Sequence record: KJ190158
DNA: 64,000 bases
Source: Escherichia phage FFH2
Reading direction: 5' to 3' (one strand)
Under the pieces are notes generated by a model. It had not been told where the DNA came from. It worked only from the letters and a program-made list of their open reading frames with translations, and ran no database searches. The position numbers were made by a program, and so were the translations under genes. Position 1 is the first letter of the stretch; the number at the start of each line of letters is the position of its first letter. Positions 6,141 to 61,418 of this stretch are shown here, piece after piece.

Positions 6141-6180
6141 AATGGCTCACTTTGTTGGTGAGCCAGAAATGGAGACAGAT

Positions 6181-23511: not shown

Positions 23512-23558
23512 TGTTTTCAAAGAGGGTTTGGTTCCCTCTTCTTTAAAAGGAACACGTT

Positions 23559-29037: not shown

Positions 29038-29156
29038 AGCACCGAGCCCACACAGGTTCCTCATACTAAAGCATGGCCTGAAGAGGCAAACGTGCATAAT
29101 TCCTGCGCATTTGGACGTATAATCCTGTTCACACTCTCATTTCCAGAGGAGATTTT

Positions 29157-29372: not shown

Positions 29373-29499
29373 CACACAATTAGCTGCCCGGCTAAAGTGC
29401 TGGAAGCACCTATAACACATCTTTCAACTAAATTTCCTACCACCACAATCACTTACCTCCCACACATGACTGTTTGCTTGTTTAGTGAGCAGTCATGCC

Positions 29500-29527
29500 T
29501 TGACATTCTTGCCTATCCTGATAAAAT
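29500..29527 (+). promoter_or_regulatory. sigma70-like promoter firing into the ORF-free region
   Basis: TTGACA-16 nt-TAAAAT, just after a CATGACTG...CAGTCATG hairpin (29465-29497). There is no ORF downstream for about 2.3 kb. Confidence 0.5.
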
Positions 29528-30842
29528 TAAGTTCTTCTCTTTTCTTTTACCGAGTAATTCGGGTTTTCTGTTCTCTTCGGTTTGAAGGGGTATAGAGATA
29601 CACCTGAGTGAACAGGGTGAACAACCGAACATTTGGCTATGGCATTAGCATGGCGAAGCGGACGGGTGACGAAAGAGGGGCCGGAGGACACCAGTCACTG
29701 CCATATGATATATGGGTGATAACCTGAAGAGTCTGAATAAGTGTTTAAGTACCAGTCAGAGGAAAAGGTGAATGGTAGCCGAAGGGGGAGGGGGGTTTCT
29801 TGTATCTTTAATTTGTATATTATGTATACACTTGTAAACCAATCTCATCTGAATTTGTTTACCACACAAAGTGGATAGGGACAAATATTACCTATTAAAC
29901 TTGAATTATTTATAGAAATACCACAACACCACTTAAGTCTTTGATTTTACACACAAATCCTACAGATATTCACCCTCCATATTTAACATACCTGTAACAT
30001 ATTCCATACCCTACCTGACCGATCAATTCACCCAACTACATCCCCATATTTTCCCTGTCTGTACTACCCCTGCCCCGCCGGGAGTCCCGTCATATCTGGC
30101 TTTCCAGCAAATATCACACCCACAAATATCATTGCCTGAAGAGGGTTTCATCCCATAATACATGCCTTACCTGAAGAGCGCTTCATACACCACGTAAATT
30201 TTTTAATTGACCCCCTCCCCGCCGCCGGAGAGGTTGGCTTTTCCCACACAGACCTGAAGAGTCAGCCAGAAATATCTGAACAGGTCCAGCTATGCCACGA
30301 TTTTGTGCTTGTCCTACAGGAGTGCCTCCCTGTCAGGAGCCGGTAGCGACTGGAGTGCTGCCAGGCGGACGAAATGGGAATCATTCTCATTCTTATAACA
30401 ATTCTCAAATATCGAGGCAGTGAGGCAAATTAATAGGTGAGGCCGTTCACACAATGGCACAACATTTGCAACCTATCTTGTGGGAGTGAATGAGAATACC
30501 TATCATTGTGAGAATAGTTATCATTACGGGCAATTTAACATAATACCCATTATGCGCACCACTGGCGATCCATACAGGGATTGATAACATGGGTTACTGT
30601 TTACACACATAACAATTATATTTCTTACTATTTGTGTGGGATATAGTTAGCAGCCGATAGATTAGATATTGACCTGTAGACTTCCAACCGTCCAGACGTC
30701 TAAACGCCCACACAACAAGGGTTATACATACACAACTGAATGTAAACAGGGCCGCAAAAATGCTACCATACAAGCTTGTAAATTTTTCATGCAGCACTTG
30801 ACAAAGAGGAGGAAAACTTGTCTGACACTTTAGACACAATAG

Positions 30843-31168
30843 TGACATAATATGACATAATGGTGACACTGAACATAATTGACATGCCTGACTGTTTACA
30901 TAGCTAACTATTCATACAGAAATGATAAGCCATGCCATTCGTTTGCATGATAATAATTAACTTGTTTACAATAGATGACATAATATAAAAGCAGGGCAAC
31001 TATTAGAAGATCTATAGTTGCCTTGCTTGTTATGTCATGATTAACTAAATACAAGGCAACTATGATCTGATTAATAGTTTGCAGACAAACTATCACGGGG
31101 GTGATGGTTACTGCTTTTATATTATGTCGCGACTCCGTCGCGCCATGCCATTCGTTTGCATAGTTGCC
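30843..31168. repeat. cluster of three short repeat families (TGACATAAT, GGCAACTAT half-sites, 20-mer GCCATGCCATTCGTTTGCAT)
   Basis: TGACATAAT at 30843, 30853 and 30976, plus inverted near-copies at 31029 and 31121. GGCAACTAT/ATAGTTGCC at 30995, 31014, 31055, 31074, 31086 and 31160. The 20-mer at 30929-30948 and 31142-31161. Confidence 0.8.
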
Positions 31169-31778
31169 TTATTGTTACAGATAAAATAATTGTATTGTTA
31201 ATTATTTCTTATCTTTCTCTTAGTCATCTAATGATTCCAGTCAGTATAGTAATGTACAGTAAACATTAGACGACTAAAGATTTCTCTGTTTATTATAACT
31301 TACCGTGACAATTTCAGGCTGTTTACGAAAAATGTTGACACCTGGGCCGATTTATGTTATGCAGTTTACACGAATAATTATTTTATGCAGGTATTGACTA
31401 TTCCGTTATTCTATGGTTGGAATAAATACTTAGCAGACTATAGAATGGTGAGCGTACGTAAATTCTGAGATCTGGCGGCTATAGTTATACTCGATTTTTC
31501 ACGTAGAACACGCTTTTGTTAGTGTGTAAGTGTATGACTTATAAAGATTTTTAGTTGTTGACAAGATATTGAAGATGTGCATCAGGTTAAATTTTGTGCA
31601 ATAGCGGCATTACGTGCAATTTTGAGAGAGAAAACGGGTAAAAATGGCCTTGCTATCACACAATGAAAAATTATGCAATAGTTATTTTACATGTATGTTT
31701 GTACAGTGTGTGGGATTGATGGCTAGTCAATTATTCCACTTGCCAGGCTGGGCCGTTTGTGGTAGGAGAAATACAGAC

Positions 31779-31806
31779 AAAAAGAAAGGGGCCTTTTAAA
31801 GCCCCT
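31779..31806 (-). terminator. rho-independent terminator ending the minus-strand small-gene block
   Basis: Minus strand: GGGGC-tttaaaag-GCCCC followed by TTTCTTTTT. Confidence 0.75.
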
Positions 31807-31824: not shown

Positions 31825-32244
31825 TTATAATGATTCGTATATTTCATAGATTCGATTTGCCAGGTCGTTACGGTAGCGGAATTTTTCCTCACGTTTGATC
31901 ATCAGATCTTTAAAGCCATATTCTTTAAGCACTTCATTAACTTTATGGCGGCATACCTTCATATTATCCTGTGCGTCACCAATAAACCTGTTGCTATGGT
32001 GCATGGCTTTAATTTCTTCTTCCAGGACCAGAGCAACTATGCGGACCGGATCAAGCTGATAGGCGGTAACATCCATGCGGCATTGTAAACGACTTTTTAC
32101 GTCTGCCACCGGATATACTGCAACCTCTTCCCCGTCAACATTGACAATAATTAGTTTACCATCGATTTCGAATCCTTTCGCCGCCGGACCGTGACAAAAA
32201 GCGTTATCAAAGCTATATGCCGGATTATTAGATTTAATGTTCAT
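31825..32244 (-). CDS. hypothetical protein
   Basis: 139-aa ORF with an AAGAGGTAAAA SD and its own promoter upstream. Confidence 0.6.
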   Translation of the reverse strand: MNIKSNNPAYSFDNAFCHGPAAKGFEIDGKLIIVNVDGEEVAVYPVADVKSRLQCRMDVTAYQLDPVRIVALVLEEEIKAMHHSNRFIGDAQDNMKVCRHKVNEVLKEYGFKDLMIKREEKFRYRNDLANRIYEIYESL

Positions 32245-32293
32245 GGTGTTTTTACCTCTTAGTTAATTTTCTTACAACTTCCCTTCAAAAAAG

Positions 32294-32322
32294 AATATAG
32301 CAAAACTGCCGATCCTTGTCAA
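32294..32322 (-). promoter_or_regulatory. sigma70-type promoter
   Basis: Minus strand: TTGACA-17 nt-TATATT. Confidence 0.65.
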
Positions 32323-32390
32323 CCAAGGATAGCATAATTTTTATGTGATCAAGGGGCTTTATTGCCCCCCTGATCGTGCAACTTGTTGTA

Positions 32391-32654
32391 TTATTTGTTG
32401 CTCATCCAGTTTTCCCAAGCTGCCTGATAATCTGCCTCACTGCGGCGGATCTCTTCTTGTTCTTCAAGCCGGATCTCTTCTTCCAGGTACCCCAGGATAT
32501 CGGCTTTTTTGGTCTGGCGTAACATCCAATCATCTTTTTTACGAGTAAAGATCTTATAAGCTTTCTCGCAAACCTCTTTTTTGCTACCTTTTTGGACTTC
32601 AAGAACACGATAAGCCATATATTGAACTAGTTTGAGCTGGTCAAGACGTTTCAT
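32391..32654 (-). CDS. hypothetical protein
   Basis: 87-aa ORF with an AAAGAGGAAAA SD preceded by a GGGCC-aaaa-GGCCC hairpin. Confidence 0.6.
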   Translation of the reverse strand: MKRLDQLKLVQYMAYRVLEVQKGSKKEVCEKAYKIFTRKKDDWMLRQTKKADILGYLEEEIRLEEQEEIRRSEADYQAAWENWMSNK

Positions 32655-32714
32655 AGTGTTTTCCTCTTTGTGCGGTTCTGATTAGTGGGCCTTTTGGCCC
32701 GTGTCATTATCTTA

Positions 32715-32987
32715 TTACTTATGGCGGCAGAATTCAAGCGTTTTTAATTGATAATCTTCCTCAGCCTGGAGTACTACCGCCTCGATCATTTCGTTGGCAT
32801 TGTTAAAGCCATAACCTTTAGCGAACTCATCCGCGCCACCTTCGTGATCATGTTCTGCGTTCATCGCTTCCACAAAATGGAATTCCAAATTGTTGAGGTA
32901 GGGGCTTGATGTTCCGTCCTCTTTTTCGATGAGATCCCAGATAGCATTAAAACGTGATTCGACTTCTTGATTAATCCAGCTTGACAT
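32715..32987 (-). CDS. hypothetical acidic protein
   Basis: 90-aa ORF with a GAGAGGAAAA SD preceded by a GGGCA...TGCCC hairpin and a TTGACA-17-TAACAT promoter. Confidence 0.6.
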   Translation of the reverse strand: MSSWINQEVESRFNAIWDLIEKEDGTSSPYLNNLEFHFVEAMNAEHDHEGGADEFAKGYGFNNANEMIEAVVLQAEEDYQLKTLEFCRHK

Positions 32988-33095
32988 AATGTTTTCCTCT
33001 CTTCTGGTTGTTGTGTGGGCACTTTTGCCCCTTCAAGATAAATGTTACCCCACCCCCTGGCAGATGTCAACGGTTTTTATAGTTCTTATATGACA

Positions 33096-33138
33096 GGCAG
33101 GCCCGGTGATTGTCTCCCCCCGTCGCCAGGTGCCTGCC
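33096..33138 (-). repeat. GC-rich structured element, copy 3 (see 42421 and 42556)
   Basis: Minus strand: GGCAGGCacctggcgacgGGGGGAGACAATCACCGGGCCTGCC. The outer arms GGCAGGC and GCCTGCC are complementary. The core GGGAGACAAYCACCGGG is shared with the 42.4-kb copies. Confidence 0.7.
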
Positions 33139-33151
33139 GTTGAATAAGTAT

Positions 33152-33184
33152 AACAAAAAACAGGACCATTGCAAGCCCTGTTTT
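33152..33184 (-). terminator. rho-independent terminator
   Basis: Minus strand: AACAGG-gcttgcaatggt-CCTGTT followed by TTTTGTT. Confidence 0.65.
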
Positions 33185-33198
33185 CTAGTCAATAAGGA

Positions 33199-33390
33199 TT
33201 ATATTTTTTCGCCTATGTAGTCCGGTCGGTTTTTCTCTGTCATGCGCTTTAGCAATTCTTGCATGTTACTTATGGCTTGTAGTGTATCCCCTTCCAGGCT
33301 TGAATCAACATAATCAGGATCGTCTATGACCTTTCTATGATTATGATAACGCAGTACCGCTAATACCTTTCTAACTTGTTCGATATTCAT
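33199..33390 (-). CDS. hypothetical protein
   Basis: 63-aa ORF, last gene of a 4-gene mini-operon (33824 to 33199). Confidence 0.5.
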   Translation of the reverse strand: MNIEQVRKVLAVLRYHNHRKVIDDPDYVDSSLEGDTLQAISNMQELLKRMTEKNRPDYIGEKI

Positions 33391-33402
33391 TTTTACCGCT
33401 CT

Positions 33403-33537
33403 TTAAAACAAGGTGCCAACCGTTTCCAATAGATCACTGACTACCAGGACAATACTGATCAGCACATACCTAACCATAAGGGGAAAGAGCGCCAGCGATC
33501 CCGCCACAATCCCCAAGGTGATGATTATCTTTCTCAT
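33403..33537 (-). CDS. hydrophobic micro-protein (44 aa)
   Basis: MRKIIITLGIVAGSLALFPLMVRYVLISIVLVVSDLLETVGTLF exactly fills the gap between neighbours. Below the ORF-track cutoff. Confidence 0.45.
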   Translation of the reverse strand: MRKIIITLGIVAGSLALFPLMVRYVLISIVLVVSDLLETVGTLF

Positions 33538-33539
33538 GG

Positions 33540-33824
33540 TTAACGGTTTACGTAAGCTTTACCGTTTACGGTGATGGGCAGATCTTCCAGGTCTGGATCT
33601 TCCTTAAGGTCGCGAGCAAGCTCACCGCACCGGATACCCTCGAATCCGTAGTACTCTGTCGTGCCGTCCTGGAAAGTTTTAGCGGCAAGGCATAAGCGAT
33701 AAGTAACCCCGATTTGATTGACGGCATGAATATCCGTTAGATTAACCTCTTTTGCCAGCTCTTTAGCCATTACAGGCGCATTAAGTCCAACAACCAGGGC
33801 AACCACTGCGATCATCTTTTTCAT
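33540..33824 (-). CDS. secreted/periplasmic small protein
   Basis: The N-terminal MKKMIAVVALVVGLNAPVMA looks like a Sec signal peptide with an AxA-type cleavage site. Confidence 0.6.
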   Translation of the reverse strand: MKKMIAVVALVVGLNAPVMAKELAKEVNLTDIHAVNQIGVTYRLCLAAKTFQDGTTEYYGFEGIRCGELARDLKEDPDLEDLPITVNGKAYVNR

Positions 33825-33915
33825 TGTGTCTATCCTCTTTCTGCTACGTTTAAGGCGGCGGTAACCGCCTGTTTATGCTTTGTTGGTTAATTTTCGGGTA
33901 TCGGTATAAATTAAA

Positions 33916-34131
33916 CTATGCTGTACGCTCAACTATAACAACGGTTTGGGGGATCTCCCCTTCCACCACTAGTAAGGCCTTTTTCTGCGTGATAGATATC
34001 TTTACCCGTTGCAGCGTGGCGGTGAAGTCTTTCATTTCGTCACGTGGTGTTTTAGTGCAATGCCAGATTTCAGGCTTGCCGATCTGTAAGTTGCGTAAAA
34101 ATTCTGTTTTTCCTGTTTTGTTAGTGATCAT
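33916..34131 (-). CDS. hypothetical protein
   Basis: 71-aa ORF on the same strand as all supported neighbours. The overlapping plus-strand ORF 33875-34267 lacks an SD. Confidence 0.5.
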   Translation of the reverse strand: MITNKTGKTEFLRNLQIGKPEIWHCTKTPRDEMKDFTATLQRVKISITQKKALLVVEGEIPQTVVIVERTA

Positions 34132-34140
34132 TTGTCAACC

Positions 34141-34245
34141 TCACCCGATACCGTTGGAAGACAAGATCACATTAGCCATGGTTGCAATCAGGCCAATACC
34201 TAAGGCAATAACCAGGATCACAGCATCAATTAATTTTTGTTTCAT
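34141..34245 (-). CDS. hydrophobic micro-protein (34 aa)
   Basis: MKQKLIDAVILVIALGIGLIATMANVILSSNGIG with an AGAAGAGAATAAA SD after a GGGGCCG...CGGCCCC hairpin. Confidence 0.4.
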   Translation of the reverse strand: MKQKLIDAVILVIALGIGLIATMANVILSSNGIG

Positions 34246-34322
34246 GGTGTTTATTCTCTTCTGTTAGTAACCTTATTCATGGGGCCGTAGCAGCGGCCCC
34301 AGGGTAAGGCGGCTATATGCTT

Positions 34323-34568
34323 TTAGTGTTTCATTCCAACCATCGCGGCACGGATCGCCGTAGTGCTGTACTTGAAGCCGTCCGGGGTCTTATCTTGTCC
34401 GGTTAGCTCCAGAAAAAGCATCATATCCCGCGCCGCATCATTACGATTAGCATTGGCGTTAATAAAGCCTTGGGCCAACCGGTACAATGACTCATCGTTA
34501 TTAATCCAAAGGCTTACATTCCAATGAGTTTTGTTTTTGTAACCGTTATAACCTTTATTGCTTTTCAT
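34323..34568 (-). CDS. hypothetical protein
   Basis: 81 aa, YNGYKNKTHWNVSLWINNDESLY... I recall this N-terminal pattern as recurrent in phage and plasmid proteins of unknown function, but that is unverified. Confidence 0.6.
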   Translation of the reverse strand: MKSNKGYNGYKNKTHWNVSLWINNDESLYRLAQGFINANANRNDAARDMMLFLELTGQDKTPDGFKYSTTAIRAAMVGMKH

Positions 34569-34659
34569 GGTGTTTACCTCTTCTTTGTTCCAGGTGGCGG
34601 ATCATTCTACCACCTTATGTATTATGCTTTGTTAGATGGTTGTTTGTTGTCAAACTATT

Positions 34660-34839
34660 TTAACGATAATCATCATATGCTTTATTGACCTGGCGAATAT
34701 AACATTCAAAAGCTAGATCAATAGATTTATATTCACGGATATATTCACCGTAGGAAACCACATACATTTCTATAGCTTCCTCATATGCGAGTAGAATAGA
34801 ATCTAAGCCTACGATCTCAGTCTTTGCAATAATAGCCAT
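34660..34839 (-). CDS. hypothetical protein (59 aa)
   Basis: MAIIAKTEIVGLDSILLAYEEAIEMYVVSYGEYIREYKSIDLAFECYIRQVNKAYDDYR with an AAAGAGGATAAAA SD. A TTGACA-16-TAATAT promoter and a GGGGC...GCCCC hairpin lie upstream. One residue under the ORF-track cutoff. Confidence 0.55.
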   Translation of the reverse strand: MAIIAKTEIVGLDSILLAYEEAIEMYVVSYGEYIREYKSIDLAFECYIRQVNKAYDDYR

Positions 34840-34914
34840 GATTTTTATCCTCTTTGTGGTTGGTGGGGCTTGTTGCCCCCTTTGATTTATATATTACAGT
34901 CTTATATGGTCATG

Positions 34915-35148
34915 TCAACTATTTTCAAAAAATTTTTCTGCTGTGATATTCTTCCCGGTAGGGTTCGCTACTTTCAAAATTTTATCATGCACTGGACGCC
35001 CAAAAGAATAAGCGCCGTACACAGTAAACCAATAATCGCCGTCAGGTTGTACTATTACCGCCGCATATGGTACGCCTTTTTCGTTTTTGCTGACAAAATA
35101 GATCACATTGCCATTAATAGCCTCAGCGCGTTTAATTTGTTCCATCAT
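34915..35148 (-). CDS. hypothetical protein
   Basis: 77-aa ORF with an AAGAGAGGTAAA SD after a GGGGCC-gaaaa-GGCCCC hairpin. Confidence 0.55.
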   Translation of the reverse strand: MMEQIKRAEAINGNVIYFVSKNEKGVPYAAVIVQPDGDYWFTVYGAYSFGRPVHDKILKVANPTGKNITAEKFFENS

Positions 35149-35202
35149 GATGATTTACCTCTCTTTATTTTCATAATTGGGGCCTTTTCGGCCCCGCCAG
35201 GT

Positions 35203-35487
35203 TTATTTATTGATAGCGTGCAGTGGGAAAGGTACGCCAGGTTGATAAATAACCTTTACAACCTCATCAGGACAAAAGAAGTTGCAGAACTCACCGCAAT
35301 ATGCCTCATCCTCTTTCAACTCTTCATCAACATACTCAAAAAAGTAGTCGATGCTTGGATAATCCTGGCCGGGATTATAGTCAACCATCGTTAATAATAA
35401 CTCTTGATCATTCCGTAGGATGTGCATACCCGCTTTTAAGTATTTTGCTTCCATTTCTACTACATCGCCAGCGGTAACAATAGCCAT
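35203..35487 (-). CDS. hypothetical acidic protein
   Basis: 94-aa ORF with a TAGGAG SD. Confidence 0.55.
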   Translation of the reverse strand: MAIVTAGDVVEMEAKYLKAGMHILRNDQELLLTMVDYNPGQDYPSIDYFFEYVDEELKEDEAYCGEFCNFFCPDEVVKVIYQPGVPFPLHAINK

Positions 35488-35620
35488 GATTTTAACTCCT
35501 ATCTATCTGGTCAACGATTGGGGGCCTCCCCCTCGACAACTCTTATTATCCATATTGTCGGGAATGATGCAAGTACTTCTTTAAAAATTTTTTAAGCGCC
35601 CCGTATGCCGTTGTAACGCC

Positions 35621-35654
35621 AAAATAATAAAGGCCATGCGGTTGCATGGCCTTT
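35621..35654 (-). terminator. rho-independent terminator
   Basis: Minus strand: AAAGGCCATGC-aacc-GCATGGCCTTT followed by ATTATTTT. Confidence 0.75.
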
Positions 35655-35689
35655 ATGTGATTATATTGCTGCAGGCCCTGCTAGGGGCC

Positions 35690-36040
35690 TTATTTTGCAT
35701 TCTTGCCTGTATTGCCGCCACGGTACCAGCGTCTGCGGTGAAAATGGTAATAATCACCCTCGGCATTAAACATCAGATGATTTTCAATAACCAGCTTACG
35801 AAGGTAGGCCGGATCTTGTTCCATTCTTGCCAGATTCCAGCGGCTGTTACGTAAGCGTATAAATTCCATATTCAGGCCGTTGATTGCAGTATGGATGTCA
35901 AAGTAACCACCTTTGAGACGTTCACGCATGGCGTTAAGCTCAACACAATATACAGATTTCTCACAAATCAAGGTATTAGCTATGGCGCGGACCTGGGCAA
36001 GGGGGTTAAGCTCATTAAGGTAATATAGTTTTATTTTCAT
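35690..36040 (-). CDS. hypothetical protein
   Basis: 116-aa ORF translationally coupled to the upstream gene. Confidence 0.55.
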   Translation of the reverse strand: MKIKLYYLNELNPLAQVRAIANTLICEKSVYCVELNAMRERLKGGYFDIHTAINGLNMEFIRLRNSRWNLARMEQDPAYLRKLVIENHLMFNAEGDYYHFHRRRWYRGGNTGKNAK

Positions 36041-36057
36041 AAAATCACCTGCTGAAA

Positions 36058-36366
36058 TTAGTTTGAGAAAACATCGTTCACAATAGCGATCACAATGCCG
36101 CCCACCTTGTCACGGTCAACAACGCACAAATCACCATAGATCATGCGGTAGTCTGGATGATCTTTCACAGAATAGTCAATAAGTGTTTTCTTGTCGTCCA
36201 GCTTCGTAACTTCCATTCTCATAACGATATGAGAATCATCAAAGGCATTATTCCGAAAAGTCATAGCCTGACCGCCAGGGCACCCGGTGATCTCCACTTC
36301 CACACCATCTACGATCTGACCATCAAAGAAATAAAGATTATTAGCCTGGATAAACATGTCTATCAC
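36058..36366 (-). CDS. hypothetical protein
   Basis: 102-aa ORF with an AAGGAG SD, downstream of promoter cassette copy 1. Confidence 0.55.
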   Translation of the reverse strand: MIDMFIQANNLYFFDGQIVDGVEVEITGCPGGQAMTFRNNAFDDSHIVMRMEVTKLDDKKTLIDYSVKDHPDYRMIYGDLCVVDRDKVGGIVIAIVNDVFSN

Positions 36367-36403
36367 TCCTTGTTAACTGCGTGGTCTTTTAACAGGGTTT
36401 AAA

Positions 36404-36450
36404 TTTACTTTATTGATGGCCCTGAAGTCAAGGCCATCTAAAAATAAATT
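36404..36450 (-). promoter_or_regulatory. 47-bp promoter cassette, copy 1 (-35 box inside a 7-bp inverted repeat)
   Basis: Minus strand: AAATTTATTTTTA-GATGGCC-TTGACTTCA-GGGCCATC-AATAAAG-TAAATT. It begins right after the upstream stop codon. Near-identical copies lie at 40146 and 40765. Confidence 0.7.
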
Positions 36451-36651
36451 TTACAGGCCTACAATCTCTTTGATTCGTTTAACCGCCGCCTCAGCGCCTT
36501 GGGGGTAAAAATTATGGTAACCAATCACGCGAGTGATACTAATCGCCGTTTGATGATCTTCATAGTCGCCCTTGAAGATTTCTTGACCGTCAATCAGCAC
36601 GGCAATTTTTTCTTCTTTTTTGAAGTTAATAACGCGGATATTGTTGCTCAT
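36451..36651 (-). CDS. hypothetical protein
   Basis: 66-aa ORF with an AAAGGAGAAA SD after a GGGGAaacaTCCCC hairpin. A TTGCAA-17-ATAATA promoter lies upstream. Confidence 0.55.
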   Translation of the reverse strand: MSNNIRVINFKKEEKIAVLIDGQEIFKGDYEDHQTAISITRVIGYHNFYPQGAEAAVKRIKEIVGL

Positions 36652-36893
36652 TTTTGTTTCTCCTTTCTGGTTTTTGTGTTGGTGGGGATGTTTCCCCGTT
36701 GATTGTTATTATCCATATTGCGGACCAGATTGCAACACCCTGGAAGAAAAATTTTTTGAAAAAGTTAAGCCCCCATGATCGGGGGCGTTATCAGTTACTT
36801 ATAGCAATAAAGTACATTCCTACCCCTAACAATATTTCAAGGGCGATGATCTCAAGCCATACCATAACACGGCGCACCTTATCAGCGCATGGC

Positions 36894-37019
36894 TTATCCT
36901 TGGTTGTCATCGTCTCCCCCTTCCCTCCTGTTAGTAGTGACGTGGTTTACAATGGCCCCCAGGAGTCCTATCACCACGCACACCACAAGAAAAATTATCT
37001 CCGCTGTTGTTCGATCCAT
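36894..37019 (-). CDS. hydrophobic micro-protein (41 aa)
   Basis: MDRTTAEIIFLVVCVVIGLLGAIVNHVTTNRREGGDDDNQG with GAGGA 11 nt upstream. It overlaps the 3' end of 36931-37152 in another frame. Confidence 0.4.
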   Translation of the reverse strand: MDRTTAEIIFLVVCVVIGLLGAIVNHVTTNRREGGDDDNQG

Positions 37020-37152
37020 TGTTATAAAATTCCTCAAGATCAGGCCTGAAAATAAAGCGTTCGTTATTGAATCCGTCACGCCAGGCGGCTGGCTTCAAAT
37101 CTTCACTAAAGGGATTAATTAACGTGACGTTATTTAAACGGCTGGTCCACAT
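36931..37152 (-). CDS. hypothetical protein (3' part doubtful)
   Basis: ATG 37152 is preceded by GAGAGGAATAGAAAAT. The last ~29 codons overlap a better-looking TM ORF and read as low-complexity sequence. Confidence 0.4.
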   Translation of the reverse strand: MWTSRLNNVTLINPFSEDLKPAAWRDGFNNERFIFRPDLEEFYNNGSNNSGDNFSCGVRGDRTPGGHCKPRHY

Positions 37153-37501
37153 ATTTTCTATTCCTCTCAAATAGGCGATCCGCCTCAGTTAAACATATCT
37201 CATGGGCTTGGTCTCTGGTTTTAGCCTCATCAAAAACCTGTTGTGCCAGGCTGCAGCGTAGGGAGACTGGAAGATCACTATAATAGGCGTTGACAAACGT
37301 TTGTGCGTCATACAGGTCGGAAAACACTTTACCCTTTCTATTATCGCCCTTGTCAACAATTGCAAGGATAACCAATACAATAGTTGCAACCACTCCCAGG
37401 AAAATAGATATAACAAACCATAGAAAAGCGGATCTACCTATCTTGCCAGCGATCCAGGCGTTGAACAAGGCAACTACTACAGCCAAAATAATAAATTCCA
37501 T
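37130..37501 (-). CDS. membrane protein (2 TM helices plus soluble C-terminal domain)
   Basis: The start is set at the internal ATG 37501 (AAAGAGGTACATAGA upstream, after a GGCGGC...GCCGCC hairpin). MEFIILAVVVALFNAWIAGKIGRSAFLWFVISIFLGVVATIVLVILAIV. Confidence 0.6.
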   Translation of the reverse strand: MEFIILAVVVALFNAWIAGKIGRSAFLWFVISIFLGVVATIVLVILAIVDKGDNRKGKVFSDLYDAQTFVNAYYSDLPVSLRCSLAQQVFDEAKTRDQAHEICLTEADRLFERNRKYVDQPFK

Positions 37502-37565
37502 TCTATGTACCTCTTTTGCAGTTCTGTTTAACAATAAGGCGGCAAATATGCCGCCTGTTACCTGA

Positions 37566-37946
37566 TTAAAAATTATCGCCGTAAATCTTTCCGCTTTCTG
37601 CCCACACCACCACGCGGGGCATGTTATCCCATACATCTTGTTTCAGATTTAACGCGTGCAATTCTTCGGTGGTGCTCATACCAGGCACGGGCTGATTGTA
37701 TACTGCAAAACGACCACCTGCATAATCATAGGCCAGGGTTAAATCACACTGAATCATCTTTTTGATCATGGCGTTGAGCATAGCGTTAGCCGCATACTGG
37801 TCACGTTTTAAAGGCAACTCTTTGATTAGTTTGCGATAGTTTTCAATGTGATCGCACACTGTTTCACGTGGAAGATCTTTCATATCCTCGCGAAAGGTAA
37901 CCAGGTTAAACATAACGGTGTCAATAGCTTTAGTAGTGTTTTTCAT
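37566..37946 (-). CDS. hypothetical protein
   Basis: 126-aa ORF. Upstream are a TTGCAA-17-TATATT promoter, a GGGGGCAAGACGTTTGCCCC hairpin and an AAAGAGGAAAA SD. Confidence 0.6.
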   Translation of the reverse strand: MKNTTKAIDTVMFNLVTFREDMKDLPRETVCDHIENYRKLIKELPLKRDQYAANAMLNAMIKKMIQCDLTLAYDYAGGRFAVYNQPVPGMSTTEELHALNLKQDVWDNMPRVVVWAESGKIYGDNF

Positions 37947-38035
37947 AATGTTTTCCTCTTTGTTTTGTGTGGGGCAAACGTCTTGCCCCCTTGAGTTTTA
38001 ATATAGCAGGTTTTTAGATTATTGCAACACTTTAT

Positions 38036-38659
38036 TTATGAAAAACTCATCTCTCCATATTCATCTACATCAAACCGCCAATCATTGGCCTCAATAAGGC
38101 CGATCAGGTTTTCGGTAGTGAACTGCTCTAGATAGGCCTCCTCCAGGTCTACGTAAACCTTGCGGGATAGCTCCCGTACCGTCTCGGTGATCAGCTCTTC
38201 CAGGTCTTCCACTTTGTTTTCTTGTTTGGCGGTCAGATCTAGCCAGGTGGTATCAATGTATCCGCTTACAGTGTTTTCATGGCTGTAATGGCTGTACTTG
38301 TCGCGTTCAATACTGGCTGATAACTCGCCATCGTGCATTGTGCCGAACAAGTGACGAATTGATCGGAACTTGGTCAGGGCCTTTACTTTACGCAAGAATT
38401 TTTCTAAATCCACGTTTTCAGCACTGATTGACGCGCCGTCACCCTGGCACCAAAAGCCGGACCAATGTACATCGGTATCTTCAAGGCCGTACTCTGGAAA
38501 AACTTGTTCTTTATAATATTCAATTACACTTTCTGCGAAAAAATCCTCTCCGCTGTGTTCTTCTCTTTCGCGGACCATTTCAATAGCTTTTTCTTTTTGT
38601 TCGTCGGTCAGCACGTCGAAAGATAAATTGCAACCTGTGGTAATGTTAACGGTGGTCAT
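38036..38659 (-). CDS. hypothetical acidic protein (207 aa)
   Basis: Contains HWSGFWCQGDGASI and YSHYSHENTV motifs. It has its own promoter, hairpin and SD. Function unknown. Confidence 0.6.
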   Translation of the reverse strand: MTTVNITTGCNLSFDVLTDEQKEKAIEMVREREEHSGEDFFAESVIEYYKEQVFPEYGLEDTDVHWSGFWCQGDGASISAENVDLEKFLRKVKALTKFRSIRHLFGTMHDGELSASIERDKYSHYSHENTVSGYIDTTWLDLTAKQENKVEDLEELITETVRELSRKVYVDLEEAYLEQFTTENLIGLIEANDWRFDVDEYGEMSFS

Positions 38660-38716
38660 GATATTTTCTCCTGTTTTCTTTGTTAGTGGCGGGAAGTTTT
38701 CCCGCCTGTGTGTTTA

Positions 38717-38744
38717 ATTATACTTATTGAGATTTACTTGTCAA
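38717..38744 (-). promoter_or_regulatory. sigma70-type promoter
   Basis: Minus strand: TTGACA-16 nt-TATAAT, followed 10 nt later by the hairpin GGCGGGAAaactTTCCCGCC (38688-38706). Confidence 0.7.
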
Positions 38745-38994
38745 CACTATTTTTTAAATTATTGTGGCGCAAAATGTTTAAAATCTCTTCAACGTCATCA
38801 ACACGGCGGCAATTTTTAAACGCTACCAATTGCCCCATGATTTTAATCACTGGGCGGCCTTGCCAGTGCCCCTGGAGAAAGCGCGCCTTGACTTTATCGG
38901 TGGGACTATCACGCCACCAAATGGCCTTGTTATTGCAGTAGTAAAAATTATTCAGGACAATATCAACTTTATCAAAATTTTTTAATTTACGCAT
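38734..38994 (-). CDS. hypothetical protein
   Basis: 86-aa ORF with an AAGGAAGGAG SD and a TTGACA-17-TATACT promoter upstream. Confidence 0.55.
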   Translation of the reverse strand: MRKLKNFDKVDIVLNNFYYCNNKAIWWRDSPTDKVKARFLQGHWQGRPVIKIMGQLVAFKNCRRVDDVEEILNILRHNNLKNSVDK

Positions 38995-39204
38995 AGTGTT
39001 TACTCCTTCCTTCTTGCTTTGATGTGGTTAGTATATCCGGACTATTCCAAGGTGTCAAGCTTTAAATAAAATCACTGTCAATGATATTTTTAACACCATA
39101 AAACGGCCCTAGGCGATGTTTTCAGGTTAATAAAGGGGATTGCATAGGTAGGGGCTTTTGTGGCGTTTGTGGGGCCAACCAGGGGCGCTATTCGTAGGAT
39201 AGAA

Positions 39205-39231
39205 ATAAAAAGCCCCGCACAATGGCGGGGC
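39205..39231 (-). terminator. rho-independent terminator
   Basis: Minus strand: GCCCCGC-cattgt-GCGGGGC followed by TTTTTATTT. Confidence 0.75.
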
Positions 39232-39239
39232 GTTGGTTG

Positions 39240-39437
39240 CTATTTGTCTTTGTGGCGGTATCGTTCCGCCTGTCGTTCACGTTCCAAAAGCAGGCCCGGT
39301 AATTTGCGATCATAGTGATTTCTCCAGATCTTCCCGAACCTTTTCGGTTTATTCAGTTTATTGTTACGCTGGCGGCGTTCCGGCAGCTCTTCGGAATCGT
39401 GGGGGCGCTTTACAATTTTTTCGAAATTAATTTTCAT
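39240..39437 (-). CDS. small basic protein (65 aa)
   Basis: ATG 39437 is preceded by AAAGGGGG. Rich in Arg and Lys. Confidence 0.5.
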   Translation of the reverse strand: MKINFEKIVKRPHDSEELPERRQRNNKLNKPKRFGKIWRNHYDRKLPGLLLERERQAERYRHKDK

Positions 39438-39798
39438 AAACGCCCCCTTTACTGATCTCAATATTTGCCTGAATCGCCCGGATACGACGTTTTATAGTCT
39501 CCTGATCCTTGCAATCATATCCCCAAAAGTCTACGATTTTTGCGCCGCCAGCCTTTAAGCGGTATAATGTTTCTTGCATCTTGTAAGCTGGGATCGGTCT
39601 CGGTGTTACCTGGTCCCCTTTCCCATCCTTGTACTTGATAATGTAGTCTTCGTTGTCGTTGAATACCCAAAATGGGTATTCTGTAAGCGCGTTGCTCTCT
39701 TTTTCGTTTTTGGATTGGATCTTGTTTACAATTAAAGCCGTAGCAATAGCGCCAATAATAAAACTTGCCCCGCTGATCATGTTACTTTCTCCTTTCAT
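39427..39798 (-). CDS. membrane-anchored protein
   Basis: The N-terminal ISGASFIIGAIATALIV looks like a TM anchor, followed by a soluble domain. Confidence 0.55.
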   Translation of the reverse strand: MKGESNMISGASFIIGAIATALIVNKIQSKNEKESNALTEYPFWVFNDNEDYIIKYKDGKGDQVTPRPIPAYKMQETLYRLKAGGAKIVDFWGYDCKDQETIKRRIRAIQANIEISKGGVYEN

Positions 39799-39856
39799 TG
39801 TGCTGATAAACTATCTTTATAGATGGCCCTGCCACCAGGACCACCGAAAAAACAGT

Positions 39857-40102
39857 TTATTTGACGATACCGACAAAACAGATCCCGCCTTCCCCTATAT
39901 AGGCAATATCGGTAATTTTATAATTTGTCAAGATCCGCGTGTTCAGATCATTAATAAAATCGGTCATCGCGTTGGTGTAGTTGTCTTCCGTGTCTAAGGC
40001 ATAATCCCAGGTGTAAACCTTTTTACGTCCGAAGCCTTTTACCATGATACGGGCGCTTTTGGTGTTGGTAGGGGCATAATATTTGGTAATTAGTGCGGCC
40101 AT
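39857..40102 (-). CDS. hypothetical protein
   Basis: 81-aa ORF with a TAGAGGAG SD, downstream of promoter cassette copy 2. Confidence 0.55.
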   Translation of the reverse strand: MAALITKYYAPTNTKSARIMVKGFGRKKVYTWDYALDTEDNYTNAMTDFINDLNTRILTNYKITDIAYIGEGGICFVGIVK

Positions 40103-40145
40103 TGTTTTAACTCCTCTATATTAGTTCAGTGTTAACAGTGTAAAG

Positions 40146-40192
40146 TTTACTTTATTGATGGCCCTGGAGTCAAGGCCATCTAAAAATAAATT
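40146..40192 (-). promoter_or_regulatory. 47-bp promoter cassette, copy 2
   Basis: Minus strand: AAATTTATTTTTA-GATGGCC-TTGACTCCA-GGGCCATC-AATAAAG-TAAACT. Confidence 0.7.
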
Positions 40193-40533
40193 TACTCGTT
40201 TTCTTCCAGTTCTGCAAGCTCTTCTTTCACTTCTTCAAGCTCTGTCTGTAATTCTTGGTATTCTTCATCGTCCTCAATATCCAGGCTGTCGATGTAGTCG
40301 CTAAATCCGCAGCGGTAAGCGATAGGATCTAGCTCCTTGAGGATACGCGACGGAAGAAAAGAAATGTTTCCGATCATAATTTCGCCGTAGATCTCGTCTA
40401 ACCATTCATCATAGTTTTCGTCGTACTTGTCCTCGTCGATTTCAAAGTTATCGATCTTATTCTCAAGGTCTGCGATCTGTTTTTTCAGCGCGGCGATCTG
40501 CATGGCTTTTTCTGCGGCGGTCATAGTAGTCAT
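40192..40533 (-). CDS. highly acidic coiled-coil protein (113 aa)
   Basis: About one third of residues are D or E (IDEDKYDENYDEWLDE..., DIEDDEEYQELQTELEEVKEELAELEENE). It has its own TTGACA-16-TATACT promoter and hairpin. Confidence 0.6.
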   Translation of the reverse strand: MTTMTAAEKAMQIAALKKQIADLENKIDNFEIDEDKYDENYDEWLDEIYGEIMIGNISFLPSRILKELDPIAYRCGFSDYIDSLDIEDDEEYQELQTELEEVKEELAELEENE

Positions 40534-40611
40534 GGTGTTTTCTCCTTTTGTGTGTTCTGGGAAGTTTTCCCGTTTATGTGTTTAGTATACTGATCTAAGT
40601 TAGCTTGTCAA

Positions 40612-40731
40612 TTAAAAGTTTAAGAAAAATTTTGCGATACCGTTGGCGCTACCCATCAACATTTGCGCCAGGATGTAACCAATGATGCAAACGATAATAG
40701 TTACCTTTGTGTGCTGGCGTGTAGTACTCAT
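40612..40731 (-). CDS. hydrophobic micro-protein (39 aa)
   Basis: MSTTRQHTKVTIIVCIIGYILAQMLMGSANGIAKFFLNF with an AAAGGAGG SD, downstream of promoter cassette copy 3. Confidence 0.45.
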   Translation of the reverse strand: MSTTRQHTKVTIIVCIIGYILAQMLMGSANGIAKFFLNF

Positions 40732-40764
40732 CTTCAAGCCTCCTTTTAGCTTAACTGGGATTAG

Positions 40765-40810
40765 TTTACTTTATTGATGGCCCTGGCGTCAAGACCATCT
40801 AAAAATAAAC
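40765..40810 (-). promoter_or_regulatory. 47-bp promoter cassette, copy 3
   Basis: Minus strand: AAGTTTATTTTTA-GATGGTC-TTGACGCCA-GGGCCATC-AATAAAG-TAAACT. Confidence 0.65.
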
Positions 40811-41206
40811 TTAGTAAGTTTTCAGTACTTTCCCGTCCAATCTGTCAAGCTGGATCTCGATAGCTGCAGAAAACCTATTATAAACCACATCGCCCATGGA
40901 GTCCAGCCAATCTATGACGTTATACACCTGCTCTTTATTCTTGCAAGTCCGGATCCGTTTCATTACGTAAGACGGATCAATATTAGTGCTCTCGTTGTTG
41001 TGGTCATGCGCCTGGCCTGCTGCATTAGTTATAGATTTTACAACCACCTGAAAGGGCTTTAAGGTGCCTTTTGCGTTCATCTCACGCGCTTTTGCGGCGC
41101 GGTTGTTATATGTTACACAACGGCGGCAAATGTTGACCAAATGCATATCAATAATTTTTTCATCGTTTGCCAGTTCGTTCATGATGCGGCGTACGTTCTT
41201 ATTCAT
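40811..41206 (-). CDS. hypothetical protein
   Basis: 131-aa ORF. Upstream are a TTGACA-TAAACT promoter and the hairpin GGCGGGAATGTTTCCCGCC (41225-41243). Confidence 0.6.
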   Translation of the reverse strand: MNKNVRRIMNELANDEKIIDMHLVNICRRCVTYNNRAAKAREMNAKGTLKPFQVVVKSITNAAGQAHDHNNESTNIDPSYVMKRIRTCKNKEQVYNVIDWLDSMGDVVYNRFSAAIEIQLDRLDGKVLKTY

Positions 41207-41292
41207 GATCTTTTTCCTTTGTGTTGGCGGGAAACATTCCCGCCTTTTGTGCCCAGTTTACTTTAATTTTGCAGCGTGTCAATAATTTTTTT

Positions 41293-41691
41293 TTATTCGT
41301 GGGCGCATGTCACAATGTGCTTTTTATACCCCAGGTGGGCAGCAAGTGCTGACAAAAACTCATCTTCATAGATCCAGCCGTTGGCAGTGATCCCCATAGC
41401 ATTTAACGCGCTTTCAAGTGCTGCATTGGCCTTATCATAACCGTGACCGCTCGCCTTGCCACCAGTATAACCGTACTTGTTGTTCTTGCTGTCGTGCATC
41501 CAAAAGACGCAATAATGAGTGTTACCGCTGGAGGCGGCATAGTACCGGATCTCCGCTACTTCGTGCAAATTATTATCATCGTCCAGGCCAACCAGATTAT
41601 AAGCCTTGTAAAATCCACGATCACGGCGGCAGTTCTTGACATCAGAAAAAGAGAAGTCGGCATTGTCAAAATTAAAGGTTGTGGTTTTCAT
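41293..41691 (-). CDS. hypothetical protein
   Basis: 132 aa, containing GGKASGHGYDKANAALESAL. A TTGACA-17-TATACT promoter lies upstream. Confidence 0.6.
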   Translation of the reverse strand: MKTTTFNFDNADFSFSDVKNCRRDRGFYKAYNLVGLDDDNNLHEVAEIRYYAASSGNTHYCVFWMHDSKNNKYGYTGGKASGHGYDKANAALESALNAMGITANGWIYEDEFLSALAAHLGYKKHIVTCAHE

Positions 41692-41755
41692 GATTTTATC
41701 CTCTTAGTGTCTTTTGTGATTTCAGTATATTTTGTGTCGGGGCGTATGTCAATAC

Positions 41756-41953
41756 TTATTTTTTATTAAACCAGTGATTGATCTGACCTTTTGTCAGGGC
41801 GCAACGATTAAGTTGGTGCCGGGTATAGCTCTGACCGCGACGGAATTTATAAAGGCCTTGCCCGTTGTTGATGGTTACGTCCACCTGGCAAACCATTTGA
41901 TCGGTGACCACCTGGCGAGCGTTGCGACGTACTTTGATTCCGTAGGCGTTCAT
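41756..41953 (-). CDS. small basic protein
   Basis: 65-aa ORF with an AGAGAGGATAAAA SD and a TTGACA-17-TATTCT promoter. Confidence 0.5.
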   Translation of the reverse strand: MNAYGIKVRRNARQVVTDQMVCQVDVTINNGQGLYKFRRGQSYTRHQLNRCALTKGQINHWFNKK

Positions 41954-42038
41954 GATTTTTTATCCTCTCTGTTAATTAGTGTGGTGTTGTTCACCTTGCG
42001 AGGATAAGAATAACAAGAACTGTCCGAGCTGTCAACTA

Positions 42039-42215
42039 TTAGTTAAAATTATTTTTTGGGCGGAATTCTCCAGCCGCCGCCCCTGCCAGGTTAACCATCA
42101 TTTTTTCGTACTCTTCTTTATATTCCAACGCTCCCGCTATAGCCTTTTCAACCAGGGCGATAGCCTCAGCGTCATTAATAGCTACATTTTCCAGGGGGAT
42201 CATATTACCTTTCAT
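42039..42215 (-). CDS. hypothetical protein (58 aa)
   Basis: MKGNMIPLENVAINDAEAIALVEKAIAGALEYKEEYEKMMVNLAGAAAGEFRPKNNFN with a strong SD (GAAGAGGAGG). Below the ORF-track cutoff. It is the first gene of the small-gene island. Confidence 0.55.
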   Translation of the reverse strand: MKGNMIPLENVAINDAEAIALVEKAIAGALEYKEEYEKMMVNLAGAAAGEFRPKNNFN

Positions 42216-55538: not shown

Positions 55539-55596
55539 AAAGTGTTCTCCTTAAAGGGGAGGCGGTTGTACTACCCCTCCCACTCTTTGTTAAACA

Positions 55597-61015: not shown

Positions 61016-61076
61016 CGTTTGGTGCTCTCCTTAGTTTTTGTGGGGAGGAGTGCCTCCCCTTTATACTCACATCTTA

Positions 61077-61418
61077 CTACTCAAGGTCTTCAGAGTCAAG
61101 CTCAAAAAGAATCAAACTGTGCATGCCTGCAGAGAGATCAACACACCCTGCAACAATAAGGGTCTGATAGTAAGGTTCAGCACCCTCAATGTCTTCGTTA
61201 AAATCTACAACAAGATAGTCACCTTTGTTAAAGGTGTATTTGTCCGATGTAAACGCAAAACCTGCCCAGTCCCCGACTGCAGGATCTTTATCAGTCACCT
61301 TTGTTAGCAGCAGGTCTTTTTCACGAGATCTTTTAGTAAAATCGTGAATCACAACATCCTTCTCTTCAGGAGTTGGATTGCCACACACGTAGTTAACTAT
61401 ATTTCTCCACAAACTCAT
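61077..61418 (-). CDS. hypothetical protein
   Basis: 113-aa ORF whose start overlaps the helicase stop. Confidence 0.55.
   Translation of the reverse strand: MSLWRNIVNYVCGNPTPEEKDVVIHDFTKRSREKDLLLTKVTDKDPAVGDWAGFAFTSDKYTFNKGDYLVVDFNEDIEGAEPYYQTLIVAGCVDLSAGMHSLILFELDSEDLE

Follow-up and report, generated by a model that had tools for sequence, protein, structure and literature searches.

Why should so many small genes of a phage early region carry a G/C-rich hairpin shortly before their ribosome-binding site? The question is raised by a stretch of 64,000 nucleotides from Escherichia phage FFH2 (sequence record KJ190158; the whole stretch is called the window below), in which the segment 31825-42215, hereafter the island, contains 30 curated genes that are all small, hypothetical and on the minus strand. 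Because the island showed 93-96% identity across its full length with the Vequintavirus phages A6-1, SophiaRose, rV5, Murica and JES2013, the window is assigned to an rV5-like myovirus genome (Vequintavirus), and open reading frames (ORFs) 164-197 of rV5 are the counterpart of the island. Every intergenic stretch upstream of the 30 genes was inspected, and the perfect G/C hairpins and the best sigma-70 promoter match were marked.

The window contained 59 perfect G/C hairpins, compared with 30.7 +/- 4.4 in first-order Markov simulations, and 26 of the 59 fall in the island of approximately 10 kb. Twenty-three of the 30 island genes possess a leader of their own of at least 50 nt, and in 14 of these leaders we found a G/C hairpin, one of them with an imperfect stem (Table 1). 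The stems are 5-8 bp long and begin with G, and the loops comprise 3-6 nt. The hairpin ends 19-35 nt before the ATG and approximately 7-23 nt before the Shine-Dalgarno (SD) sequence, which is rich in A around (A)GAGG or GGAG; the intervening spacer consists of 55% A, 21% C, 13% G and 11% T. The order of the cassette is sigma-70 promoter, about 10-12 nt, G-first hairpin, A/C-rich unstructured spacer of 7-23 nt, strong SD and ATG, and this hairpin layout is a real, non-random and clade-wide regulatory design. The original prediction had assigned it to at least 15 genes and to most small genes, with the hairpin 10-25 nt before the SD. The recurrence stood, but the count is 14, about half of all island genes (14/30) or 14/23 of those with their own leader, so that "most" is slightly overstated, and the gap to the SD as well as the SD consensus had to be replaced by the values above. 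The individual island hairpins it had listed were all recovered at the same coordinates or no more than 3 nt off, although the one given as about 40557-40575 lies at 40559-40571 and is weaker, with 5 bp of which three are G-C pairs.

The position of the hairpin is fixed more strictly by the promoter than by the ribosome-binding site. A promoter scoring 9-12 of 12 precedes nine of the 14 leader hairpins, and in eight of the nine the hairpin begins 10, 10, 10, 10, 11, 11, 12 and 12 nt past the -10 hexamer; the ninth, at 34592-34615, is a variant with a promoter spacer of 21 nt, against 17 nt in three relatives. The tighter anchor of the layout is thus the -10 hexamer and not the SD distance. The scan was also run from the promoter side, taking sites with at least 10 of 12 matches and counting hairpins that start 8-14 nt downstream: eight of 56 promoter-like sites in the window carry one, where about one is expected by chance (approximately 1.7% per site), and almost no hairpins were found elsewhere in the first 60 nt. 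Transcription usually starts 7-8 nt past the -10 hexamer. With this geometry the hairpin is predicted to begin at about +4 to +6 of the mRNA, after 3-6 unpaired 5' nucleotides, and the start predicted from the sequence usually falls within a CA motif. The hairpin, earlier proposed to sit at the extreme 5' end of the mRNA where a promoter exists, would by this geometry lie a few nucleotides from that end, and since it lies downstream of the predicted start, it would be part of the gene's own mRNA.

Leaders were then folded up to the ATG, the predicted start or the stop codon being taken as the first position. In each of the 14 predicted 5' untranslated regions the hairpin is the sole stable fold, and SD and AUG are left unpaired; the free energy (dG) of the leaders is -5.9 to -25.4 kcal/mol (-5.5 to -25 kcal/mol for the stem-loops), and the z-scores are -1.8 to -5.4 in 13 of the 14, the exception being 35520-35532. 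The 8 nt past the stem contain on average 1.4 T, and 0-3 T in 13 leaders. The statement that none of the hairpins is followed by a U-tract therefore held except for 37537-37556, which has 5 T in 8 nt, continues with TATTGTTA and is annotated as a terminator in Murica; this hairpin may be a terminator, its class being ambiguous. Six T-tailed hairpins are also present in the island (39212, 35627, 36769, 33154, 31787 and 32353; 5-7 T in five of them, 3 in one), of which five sit between a stop codon and the next promoter and 31787 follows the last island gene. Because the leader hairpins have no T-tract while T-tailed terminators exist in the same island, they are not canonical terminators. They share with intrinsic terminators the G/C-rich stem of 5-8 bp, the short loop and the intergenic location, and some annotators label a few of them so; they differ in having no U-tract and in lying past the promoter rather than before it. 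Terminators for antisense transcription were considered as well and rejected, the opposite strand having no T-tract past the hairpins.

What, then, might such a hairpin do on the message? Our tentative preference, which we rate a little below an even chance, is that a 5'-proximal structural hairpin shields the early mRNAs from 5'-end-dependent RNase E decay. The hairpin would act as RNA, being a structural obstacle to 5'-end-dependent attack by RppH and RNase E, or to the 5' scanning of RNase E; the hairpin and a ribosome bound 7-23 nt downstream would leave little single-stranded leader exposed, and the shielded leader would prolong the life of the phage early message. Such protection would matter where the phage itself may stimulate host RNase E, as rV5 encodes a probable homologue of Srd. 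In read-through transcripts and at five promoter-less sites the hairpin would form an internal barrier. The biochemical background is that a 5'-terminal stem-loop blocks RppH (PMC8833179), that an obstacle near the 5' end of a transcript shelters RNase E sites further downstream (PMC11194081), that RNase E is a major determinant of T4 early mRNA decay (PMC3014915), that the Srd protein of T4 stimulates the action of RNase E on host mRNA (PMC4980113) and that gp11 of rV5 is a probable Srd homologue (PMC3606486).

Processing by RNase III, at sites of the T7 early-region R type, had also been proposed, and in read-through transcripts of the early region the hairpins would indeed lie between cistrons. 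Substrates of RNase III have about 20 bp or more, which is about two helical turns. The stems found here have 5-8 bp, and at most 9 bp in relatives, with loops of 3-6 nt, and only at 34280-34301 is a lower stem predicted to extend them, modestly; because stems of this length do not suffice, we rejected this possibility as barely credible.

Comparison with close relatives showed which part of the hairpin is retained. The 14 leaders were aligned with those of 9-10 relatives (Murica, rV5, A6-1, SophiaRose, ECP2303, JLBYU08, phage 203, JES2013 and two IMG/VR contigs), and the divergence from the window was 3.0% in the stems, 3.1% in the SD, 5.8% in the 5' flank including the promoter, 6.9% in the spacer and 19.9% in the loops. 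Three loops are exactly inverted between orthologues: GAAAA/TTTTC at 35179 (TTTTC in phage 203), GACGT/ACGTC at 37971 and TGT/ACA at 41226 (ACA in loci L003 and L018). The inverted loops were seen against loci L017, L015, L003 and L018, from phages 85-95% identical, and are palindrome flip events at the DNA level. At 36684 the stem is lengthened in relatives by a paired change from GGGGA/TCCCC to GGGGAG-ACA-CTCCCC, and G.U pairs retain the stem in relatives at 35520, 37971 and 34280. On balance, the pairing of the stem is constrained, and the sequence and orientation of the loop are free.

These patterns bear on two other explanations. Binding of a phage regulator, another of the functions proposed originally, would mean either an RNA-binding repressor or antiterminator acting in the manner of boxB, or a dimeric DNA repressor with its operator at about +5 to +23, used for early shut-off. 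Palindromes here are placed where operators often lie, two or three stem types with similar UGG-containing loops dominate in the related phages alia and ukendt (see below), and GGGGCC-GAAAA-GGCCCC resembles lambda boxB; like the boxB of lambda nut, it is a small hairpin near the beginning of a phage early transcript, and one copy has the GAAAA pentaloop. Against a single regulator, the stems differ within one genome (GGCGGGAA, GGGGC, GGGCC, GGGGA, GGGGG, AGGCGG and GGGCA) and their consensus shifts from genus to genus, and the many copies, unlike boxB, have unrelated loops, which diverge by about 20% and are inverted between orthologues, the boxB-like one included. We consider a regulator site highly unlikely. 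Only slightly less so is the absence of any current function, the hairpins having been carried along with duplicated promoter cassettes, or being palindromes maintained by DNA-level processes. The leaders do form paralogous repeat families, several strains have weakened stems, and the loop inversions show palindrome activity at the DNA level. The stems, however, are about 2-fold more conserved than the flanks and more than 6-fold more than the loops, and the layout is kept in two subfamilies despite turnover of the stem sequence and recurs, apparently by convergence, in mycobacteriophages.

Which described elements do the leaders resemble? When compared by architecture, the closest are the promoter early stem-loop (PeSL) cassettes of the T4-type phages RB49 and phi1, where a consensus sigma-70 promoter, a G(n)-loop-C(n) stem-loop and an SD stand between the ORFans of hyperplastic regions; PeSLs occur also in PST and nt-1, and the functions proposed for them are termination of transcription from upstream and modular shuffling (PMC2839356, PMC4122927). 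An RB49 stem-loop is reported to have cut downstream lacZ as much as rrnB T1 did (Arbiol et al., PMC2839356). Both systems have near-consensus sigma-70 promoters, G-first stem-loops, a CA-rich leader, SD and ATG, and are packed between ORFans, and in both whole cassettes come and go between close relatives; the copies in the island may likewise be similar enough to recombine. They differ in the placement of the hairpin. In the RB49 hyperplastic region the stem-loops begin 13-24 nt before the -10 ends, lying in the spacer or with the -10 in the loop; they are within the promoter and therefore absent from the cassette's own transcript, and the PeSL papers treat a placement downstream of the -10 as a minor subclass, located before the start site (PMC2839356, PMC4122927). 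The island hairpins lie neither within nor upstream of the promoter, nor before the predicted start, but 10-12 nt downstream of the -10 at the predicted 5' end of their own mRNA, a real architectural difference which speaks for a hairpin intended for the message. The phages differ as well, RB49 and its relatives being Straboviridae and the hairpin-leader phages Vequintavirinae and Stephanstirmvirinae.

Modular shuffling of the PeSL kind also seems to have shaped the island. Of phages that are 93-96% identical, some have and others lack gene cassettes of 127-345 nt, whose ends lie in leaders or SD regions (Table 1): 34253-34576 is absent from rV5 and phage 203, both borders lying 8 nt upstream of successive ATGs, and rV5 has an additional 296-nt cassette after position 32658. 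A full GGCGGGAAAACTTCCCGCC leader, of the type preceding gene 38036..38659, stands on gene 40192..40533 in rV5 and Murica. The leader repeats form sub-families of 20-63 nt with 62-100% identity, and no single consensus covers all leaders. The cassette insertions and deletions and the leader swap would fit shuffling via repeated leaders, and mRNA-protecting cassettes could double as shuffling units, like PeSLs.

It is also conceivable that the hairpins are PeSL-type attenuators and recombination linkers, which mainly stop or dampen upstream read-through and insulate the ORFan units in transcription, the repeated leaders being what modular shuffling acts on and any effect on their own 5' end being incidental. 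The hallmarks of the PeSL hyperplastic regions are present in the island (consensus sigma-70 promoters, G-first stem-loops, 3' SD and ORFans; PMC2839356), most promoter-linked cassettes have no other terminator between the upstream stop codon and the promoter, and the gain and loss of whole cassettes with borders in leaders, the different leaders of one gene in different phages and the repeat families also count for it. Moreover, the RB49 stem-loop that lowered lacZ (PMC2839356) likewise has no U-tract in the RB49 sequence. The scarcity of T past the stems nevertheless speaks against attenuation, as canonical T-tract terminators are found elsewhere in the island, and so does the position downstream of the -10 instead of inside the promoter and outside the transcript. 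An efficient terminator 10-12 nt past the -10 would also cut the cassette's own transcripts, and a terminator needs no fixed distances to -10 and ATG across four genera. We regard this explanation as unlikely, but far from negligible.

Hairpins placed as in PeSLs were also observed. Four 63-nt cassettes in the island have a 7-bp hairpin that encloses the -35 hexamer, which is the typical PeSL placement; the genes served by them start at 36357, 39780, 40102 and 40731 and all lack a leader hairpin, and in the Murica annotation two of them are labelled as 45-nt "terminators". In Salmonella phage PVP-SE1 (locus L140, 23836-23931 and 24947-25014), RB49-style placements, with the hairpin between -35 and -10 or the -10 in the loop, coexist with leader hairpins downstream of the -10.

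The same layout with other stem sequences was found in Justusliebigvirus (alia), Phapecoctavirus (ukendt) and Seunavirus (PVP-SE1). The early regions of alia and ukendt are more regular than the island, with TTGACA-16/17-TAnnnT, 8-14 nt (often ..CACATAGG), hairpin, 17-29 nt and ATG, and with the stems GGCGGGAAA-TGG-TTTCCCGCC, GCGGCA-ATGG-TGCCGC and GCGGGAA-TAG-TTCCCGC. In alia, nine of the 19 strong promoter-like sites have a hairpin starting 8-14 nt downstream, and in ukendt 13 of the 23 have one, the chance level being again approximately 1.7% per site. PVP-SE1 has GCCGGGG/CCCCGGC stems, which end 20-23 nt before the ATG whether or not a promoter is present. In three genera an orthologous membrane-protein gene has a hairpin at the same position, each time with a stem unrelated to the other two; in the island this is gene 37566..37946, the only island gene recognisably common to Stephanstirmvirinae. 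Judged from these comparisons, position and pairing are conserved across the four genera, and the sequence is not.

To extend the comparison, IMG/VR was scanned with the pattern TTGACA-N16/17-TANNNT-N8-14-GGCGGGAA, for which about 115 chance matches are expected; single matches are mostly chance, and only multi-copy loci are informative. The multi-copy loci belong to phi92-like or phAPEC8-like contigs and to high-G+C contigs. Among the latter, L037 is 99.5% identical to mycobacteriophage Thonko, and L073, L081 and L085, which lie on one contig, are about 82% identical to mycobacteriophage Imvubu. The cassette of these cluster-B-like mycobacteriophages reads TTGACA-16/17-TAnnnT, 10-11 nt, GGCGGG-5 nt-CCCGCC, SD and ATG, and L037 has seven such cassettes within 3.5 kb. 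Although the pattern allowed 8-14 nt, nearly all spacings are 10-11 nt (one is 12 and one 13). In layout, spacing and stem core the mycobacteriophages look like a convergent match to the enterobacterial phages, and no description of their hairpin cassettes was found in the searchable literature. Cassettes of the mycobacteriophage type occur also in the high-G+C loci L053, L062 and L067.

Alternatively, the element may act during transcription itself, the nascent hairpin or a G-rich RNA:DNA hybrid affecting polymerase escape, sigma release, backtracking or pausing. This would explain the tight 10-12 nt from the -10, the independent 10-11 nt in the mycobacteriophages and the fact that all stems begin with G. 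On the other hand, the promoter-less hairpins hold the same distance to the ATG, which argues for a role in mRNA or translation rather than in initiation, and the fixed spacing may merely follow from the compactness of the cassette. Such co-transcriptional action is in our view improbable. A related proposal has a marginally better, though still slim, chance: the hairpin would be more than a stabiliser of mRNA, namely a position-locked part of early promoters, a G-first clamp at about +4/+5 that acts co-transcriptionally on the polymerase or on nascent 5'-end chemistry; it would have arisen separately in enterobacterial myoviruses (rV5-, phi92-, phAPEC8- and PVP-SE1-like) and, repeated many times, in cluster-B-like mycobacteriophages.

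Protection of the mRNA by the hairpin has to be weighed against these possibilities. Of the functions originally suggested, a 5' stabiliser is the best supported, by a hairpin in the predicted own transcript that is its sole stable fold, an open SD, and a stem that is kept while the loop is free. Several points count against it. RppH and RNase E need at least 2 unpaired 5' nucleotides and prefer at least 3 (PMC8833179), so the predicted 3-6 unpaired nucleotides make classical flush-end protection borderline at best. Five of the 14 hairpins (32687, 33853, 34280, 35179 and 37537) have no convincing promoter and lie 7-45 nt past the upstream stop codon. A stem-weakening C-to-A change in the hairpin of gene 38036..38659 (A6-1 and SophiaRose) and a G-to-T change in that of gene 40811..41206 (JLBYU08) are uncompensated. 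Among 75 distinct promoter-proximal hairpins, sense-strand G.U and A.C mismatches number four and two, too few to tell selection on the RNA from selection on the DNA. Scrambling the hairpin or mutating an arm in silico in read-through RNA left the predicted accessibility of the SD unchanged (0.56 vs 0.57-0.59), and a role in insulating the ribosome-binding site is therefore not supported. Finally, a G/C-rich initially transcribed region could hinder promoter escape. Because of these weak points of the stabilising role, the attenuating and co-transcriptional ones keep appreciable weight, and the three are not mutually exclusive.

Stabilising leader hairpins are known from other messages, and transcripts of T7 gene 10 carry a 5' stem-loop. 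For stabilisation the distance between hairpin and 5' terminus should be at most about 2-4 nt, a limit taken from PMC8833179 and reportedly from Emory et al. in 1992. Stabilising stem-loops at the 5' terminus have been described for the E. coli ompA and papA mRNAs (Emory, Bouvet and Belasco 1992, cited in PMC3997798). Common to ompA, papA, T7 gene 10 and the island is a short sequence-independent hairpin near the 5' end followed by an accessible strong ribosome-binding site. As in the ompA/papA type, structure rather than sequence is conserved in the island, judging by the divergence of stem and loop (3.0% vs 19.9%), the inversions and the stem turnover. The differences are that the predicted 3-6 unpaired 5' nucleotides reach or exceed the length at which RppH and RNase E would still be blocked (PMC8833179), that five island copies are inside polycistronic RNA without a promoter, and that the phage element is repeated at dozens of genes per genome. 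The leader design is best classed as a variant of PeSL-like cassettes and 5'-proximal stabilising hairpins, not as a new category.

The rV5 genome paper lists promoters and terminators and does not mention leader hairpins (PMC3606486), and in the literature searched we found no description of these hairpins or of mapped start sites in rV5-, phi92- or phAPEC8-like phages or in Vequintavirinae. Therapy and biocontrol make wide use of the rV5, phi92 and phAPEC8 groups, but hardly any study has dealt with their approximately 100 early ORFans and the control of these. If the hairpins set mRNA lifetime, this would explain the strong expression of dozens of tiny early genes during clearance of host mRNA, and the cassette of promoter, hairpin, A/C spacer and SD could be a natural, portable, context-independent expression unit for synthetic biology. 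The cassette insertions and deletions and leader swaps carry the idea of PeSL shuffling beyond T4-type phages, and the apparently convergent mycobacteriophage cassettes suggest a general, directly testable design rule.

Table 1. Hairpins, promoters and cassettes of the window (promoters are written as -35, spacer length, -10; z, fold z-score)
Feature	Position	Strand	Remarks
Leader hairpin GGCGGGAA-AAC-TTCCCGCC	38688..38706	-	gene 38036..38659; ends 28 nt before ATG
Promoter TTGACA-16-TATAAT	38744..38717	-	hairpin 38688..38706 starts 10 nt past -10; dG -14.6 kcal/mol, z -5.4
Leader hairpin GGCGGGAA-TGT-TTCCCGCC	41226..41244	-	gene 40811..41206; ends 19 nt before ATG
Promoter TTGACA-16-TAAACT	41282..41255	-	hairpin 41226..41244 starts 10 nt past -10; z -4.3
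Leader hairpin GGGGCAA-GACGT-TTGCCCC	37971..37989	-	gene 37566..37946, membrane protein conserved in related genera; 24 nt to ATG
Promoter TTGCAA-16-TATATT	38027..38000	-	hairpin 37971..37989 starts 10 nt past -10; z -3.2
Leader hairpin GGGGA-AACA-TCCCC	36684..36697	-	gene 36451..36651; ends 32 nt before ATG
Promoter TTGCAA-16-GATAAT	36735..36708	-	hairpin 36684..36697 starts 10 nt past -10
Leader hairpin GGGGC-AACAA-GCCCC	34865..34879	-	gene 34660..34839; ends 25 nt before ATG
Promoter TTGACA-16-TAATAT	34918..34891	-	hairpin 34865..34879 starts 11 nt past -10
Leader hairpin GGGCA-AAAG-TGCCC	33017..33030	-	gene 32715..32987; ends 29 nt before ATG
Promoter TTGACA-17-TAACAT	33070..33042	-	hairpin 33017..33030 starts 11 nt past -10
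Leader hairpin GGGGG-AGG-CCCCC	35520..35532	-	gene 35203..35487; ends 32 nt before ATG; z -0.45
Promoter TTGCAT-16-GATAAT	35572..35545	-	hairpin 35520..35532 starts 12 nt past -10
Weak leader hairpin GGGAA-AAC-TTCCC	40559..40571	-	gene 40192..40533
Promoter TTGACA-16-TATACT	40611..40584	-	hairpin 40559..40571 starts 12 nt past -10
Imperfect leader hairpin AGGTGGTAG-AATG-ATCCGCCACCT	34592..34615	-	gene 34323..34568
TTGACA and CATAAT, 21-nt spacer	34653..34621	-	promoter of hairpin 34592..34615
Hairpin GGGCC-AAAA-GGCCC	32687..32700	-	gene 32391..32654; 32 nt before ATG
Weak promoter at best, TTGAAT-17-TAAGAT, 8/12	ends 8 nt upstream of hairpin 32687..32700	-	read from sequence
Hairpin AGGCGG-TTACCG-CCGCCT	33853..33870	-	gene 33540..33824; 28 nt before ATG; no promoter found
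Hairpin TGGGGCCG-CTGCTA-CGGCCCCA	34280..34301	-	gene 34141..34245; 34 nt before ATG; no promoter found; dG -25 kcal/mol including flanking pairs
Hairpin GGGGCC-GAAAA-GGCCCC	35179..35195	-	gene 34915..35148; 30 nt before ATG; no promoter found
Hairpin AGGCGGCA-TATT-TGCCGCCT	37537..37556	-	gene 37130..37501; 35 nt before ATG; no promoter found
Hairpin GGGGAGG-CACT-CCTCCCC	61042..61059	-	outside island; 26 nt to ATG at 61015
Promoter TTGACT-17-TAAGAT	61099..61071	-	hairpin 61042..61059 starts 11 nt past -10
Hairpin AAGAGGG-TTTGGTT-CCCTCTT	23520..23540	+	TTGACA-17-TATCAT 8 nt upstream; 18 nt to ATG at 23559
Hairpin TGGCTCAC-TTTGTTG-GTGAGCCA	6143..6165	+	2 nt past TATAAT; 15 nt before ATG at 6181; atypical geometry
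Imperfect hairpin GGGAGGGG...CCGCCTCCC	55557..55581	-	immediately upstream of SD of gene starting 55538
Four 63-nt cassettes TTTAGATGGCCTTGACnnCAGGGCCATCAATAAAGTAAAnT	36390-36452, 39797-39859, 40132-40194, 40751-40813	-	62-100% identical
Cassette gain/loss sites	34253-34576, 35699-36043, 33394-33520, 32658, 33174-33189		comparison of near-identical Vequintaviruses

Outside the island, the layout had been reported at four further places. Those at 23520-23540 (plus strand) and 61042-61059 (minus strand) match it, whereas 6143-6165 (plus strand) has an atypical geometry and the hairpin at 55557-55581 (minus strand) is imperfect.

The scan of the window for tRNA revealed no tRNA gene, and the Rfam scan of the whole window gave no family match at gathering score. 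Scanning IMG/VR with a 207-aa protein of the island yielded eight loci only, two of them from close relatives. At about 28510-31780, approximately 3.3 kb without a credible ORF separate the plus-strand from the minus-strand modules, and the rV5 genome paper likewise marks a "non-coding" box (PMC3606486). This stretch includes an A+T-rich segment (30600-31400, 34-36% G+C) with repeated and inverted motifs, among them GCAACTAT/ATAGTTGC palindromes, GACATAATAT repeats and a 20-nt sequence found identically at 30929 and 31142. A replication origin or a regulatory region could lie here. Long non-coding gaps adjoin the early island also in ukendt (locus L012, 8083-9343) and alia (locus L011, 6720-7223), and contain many short A/T-rich repeats of the type AAAGTTTA..AAAATT.

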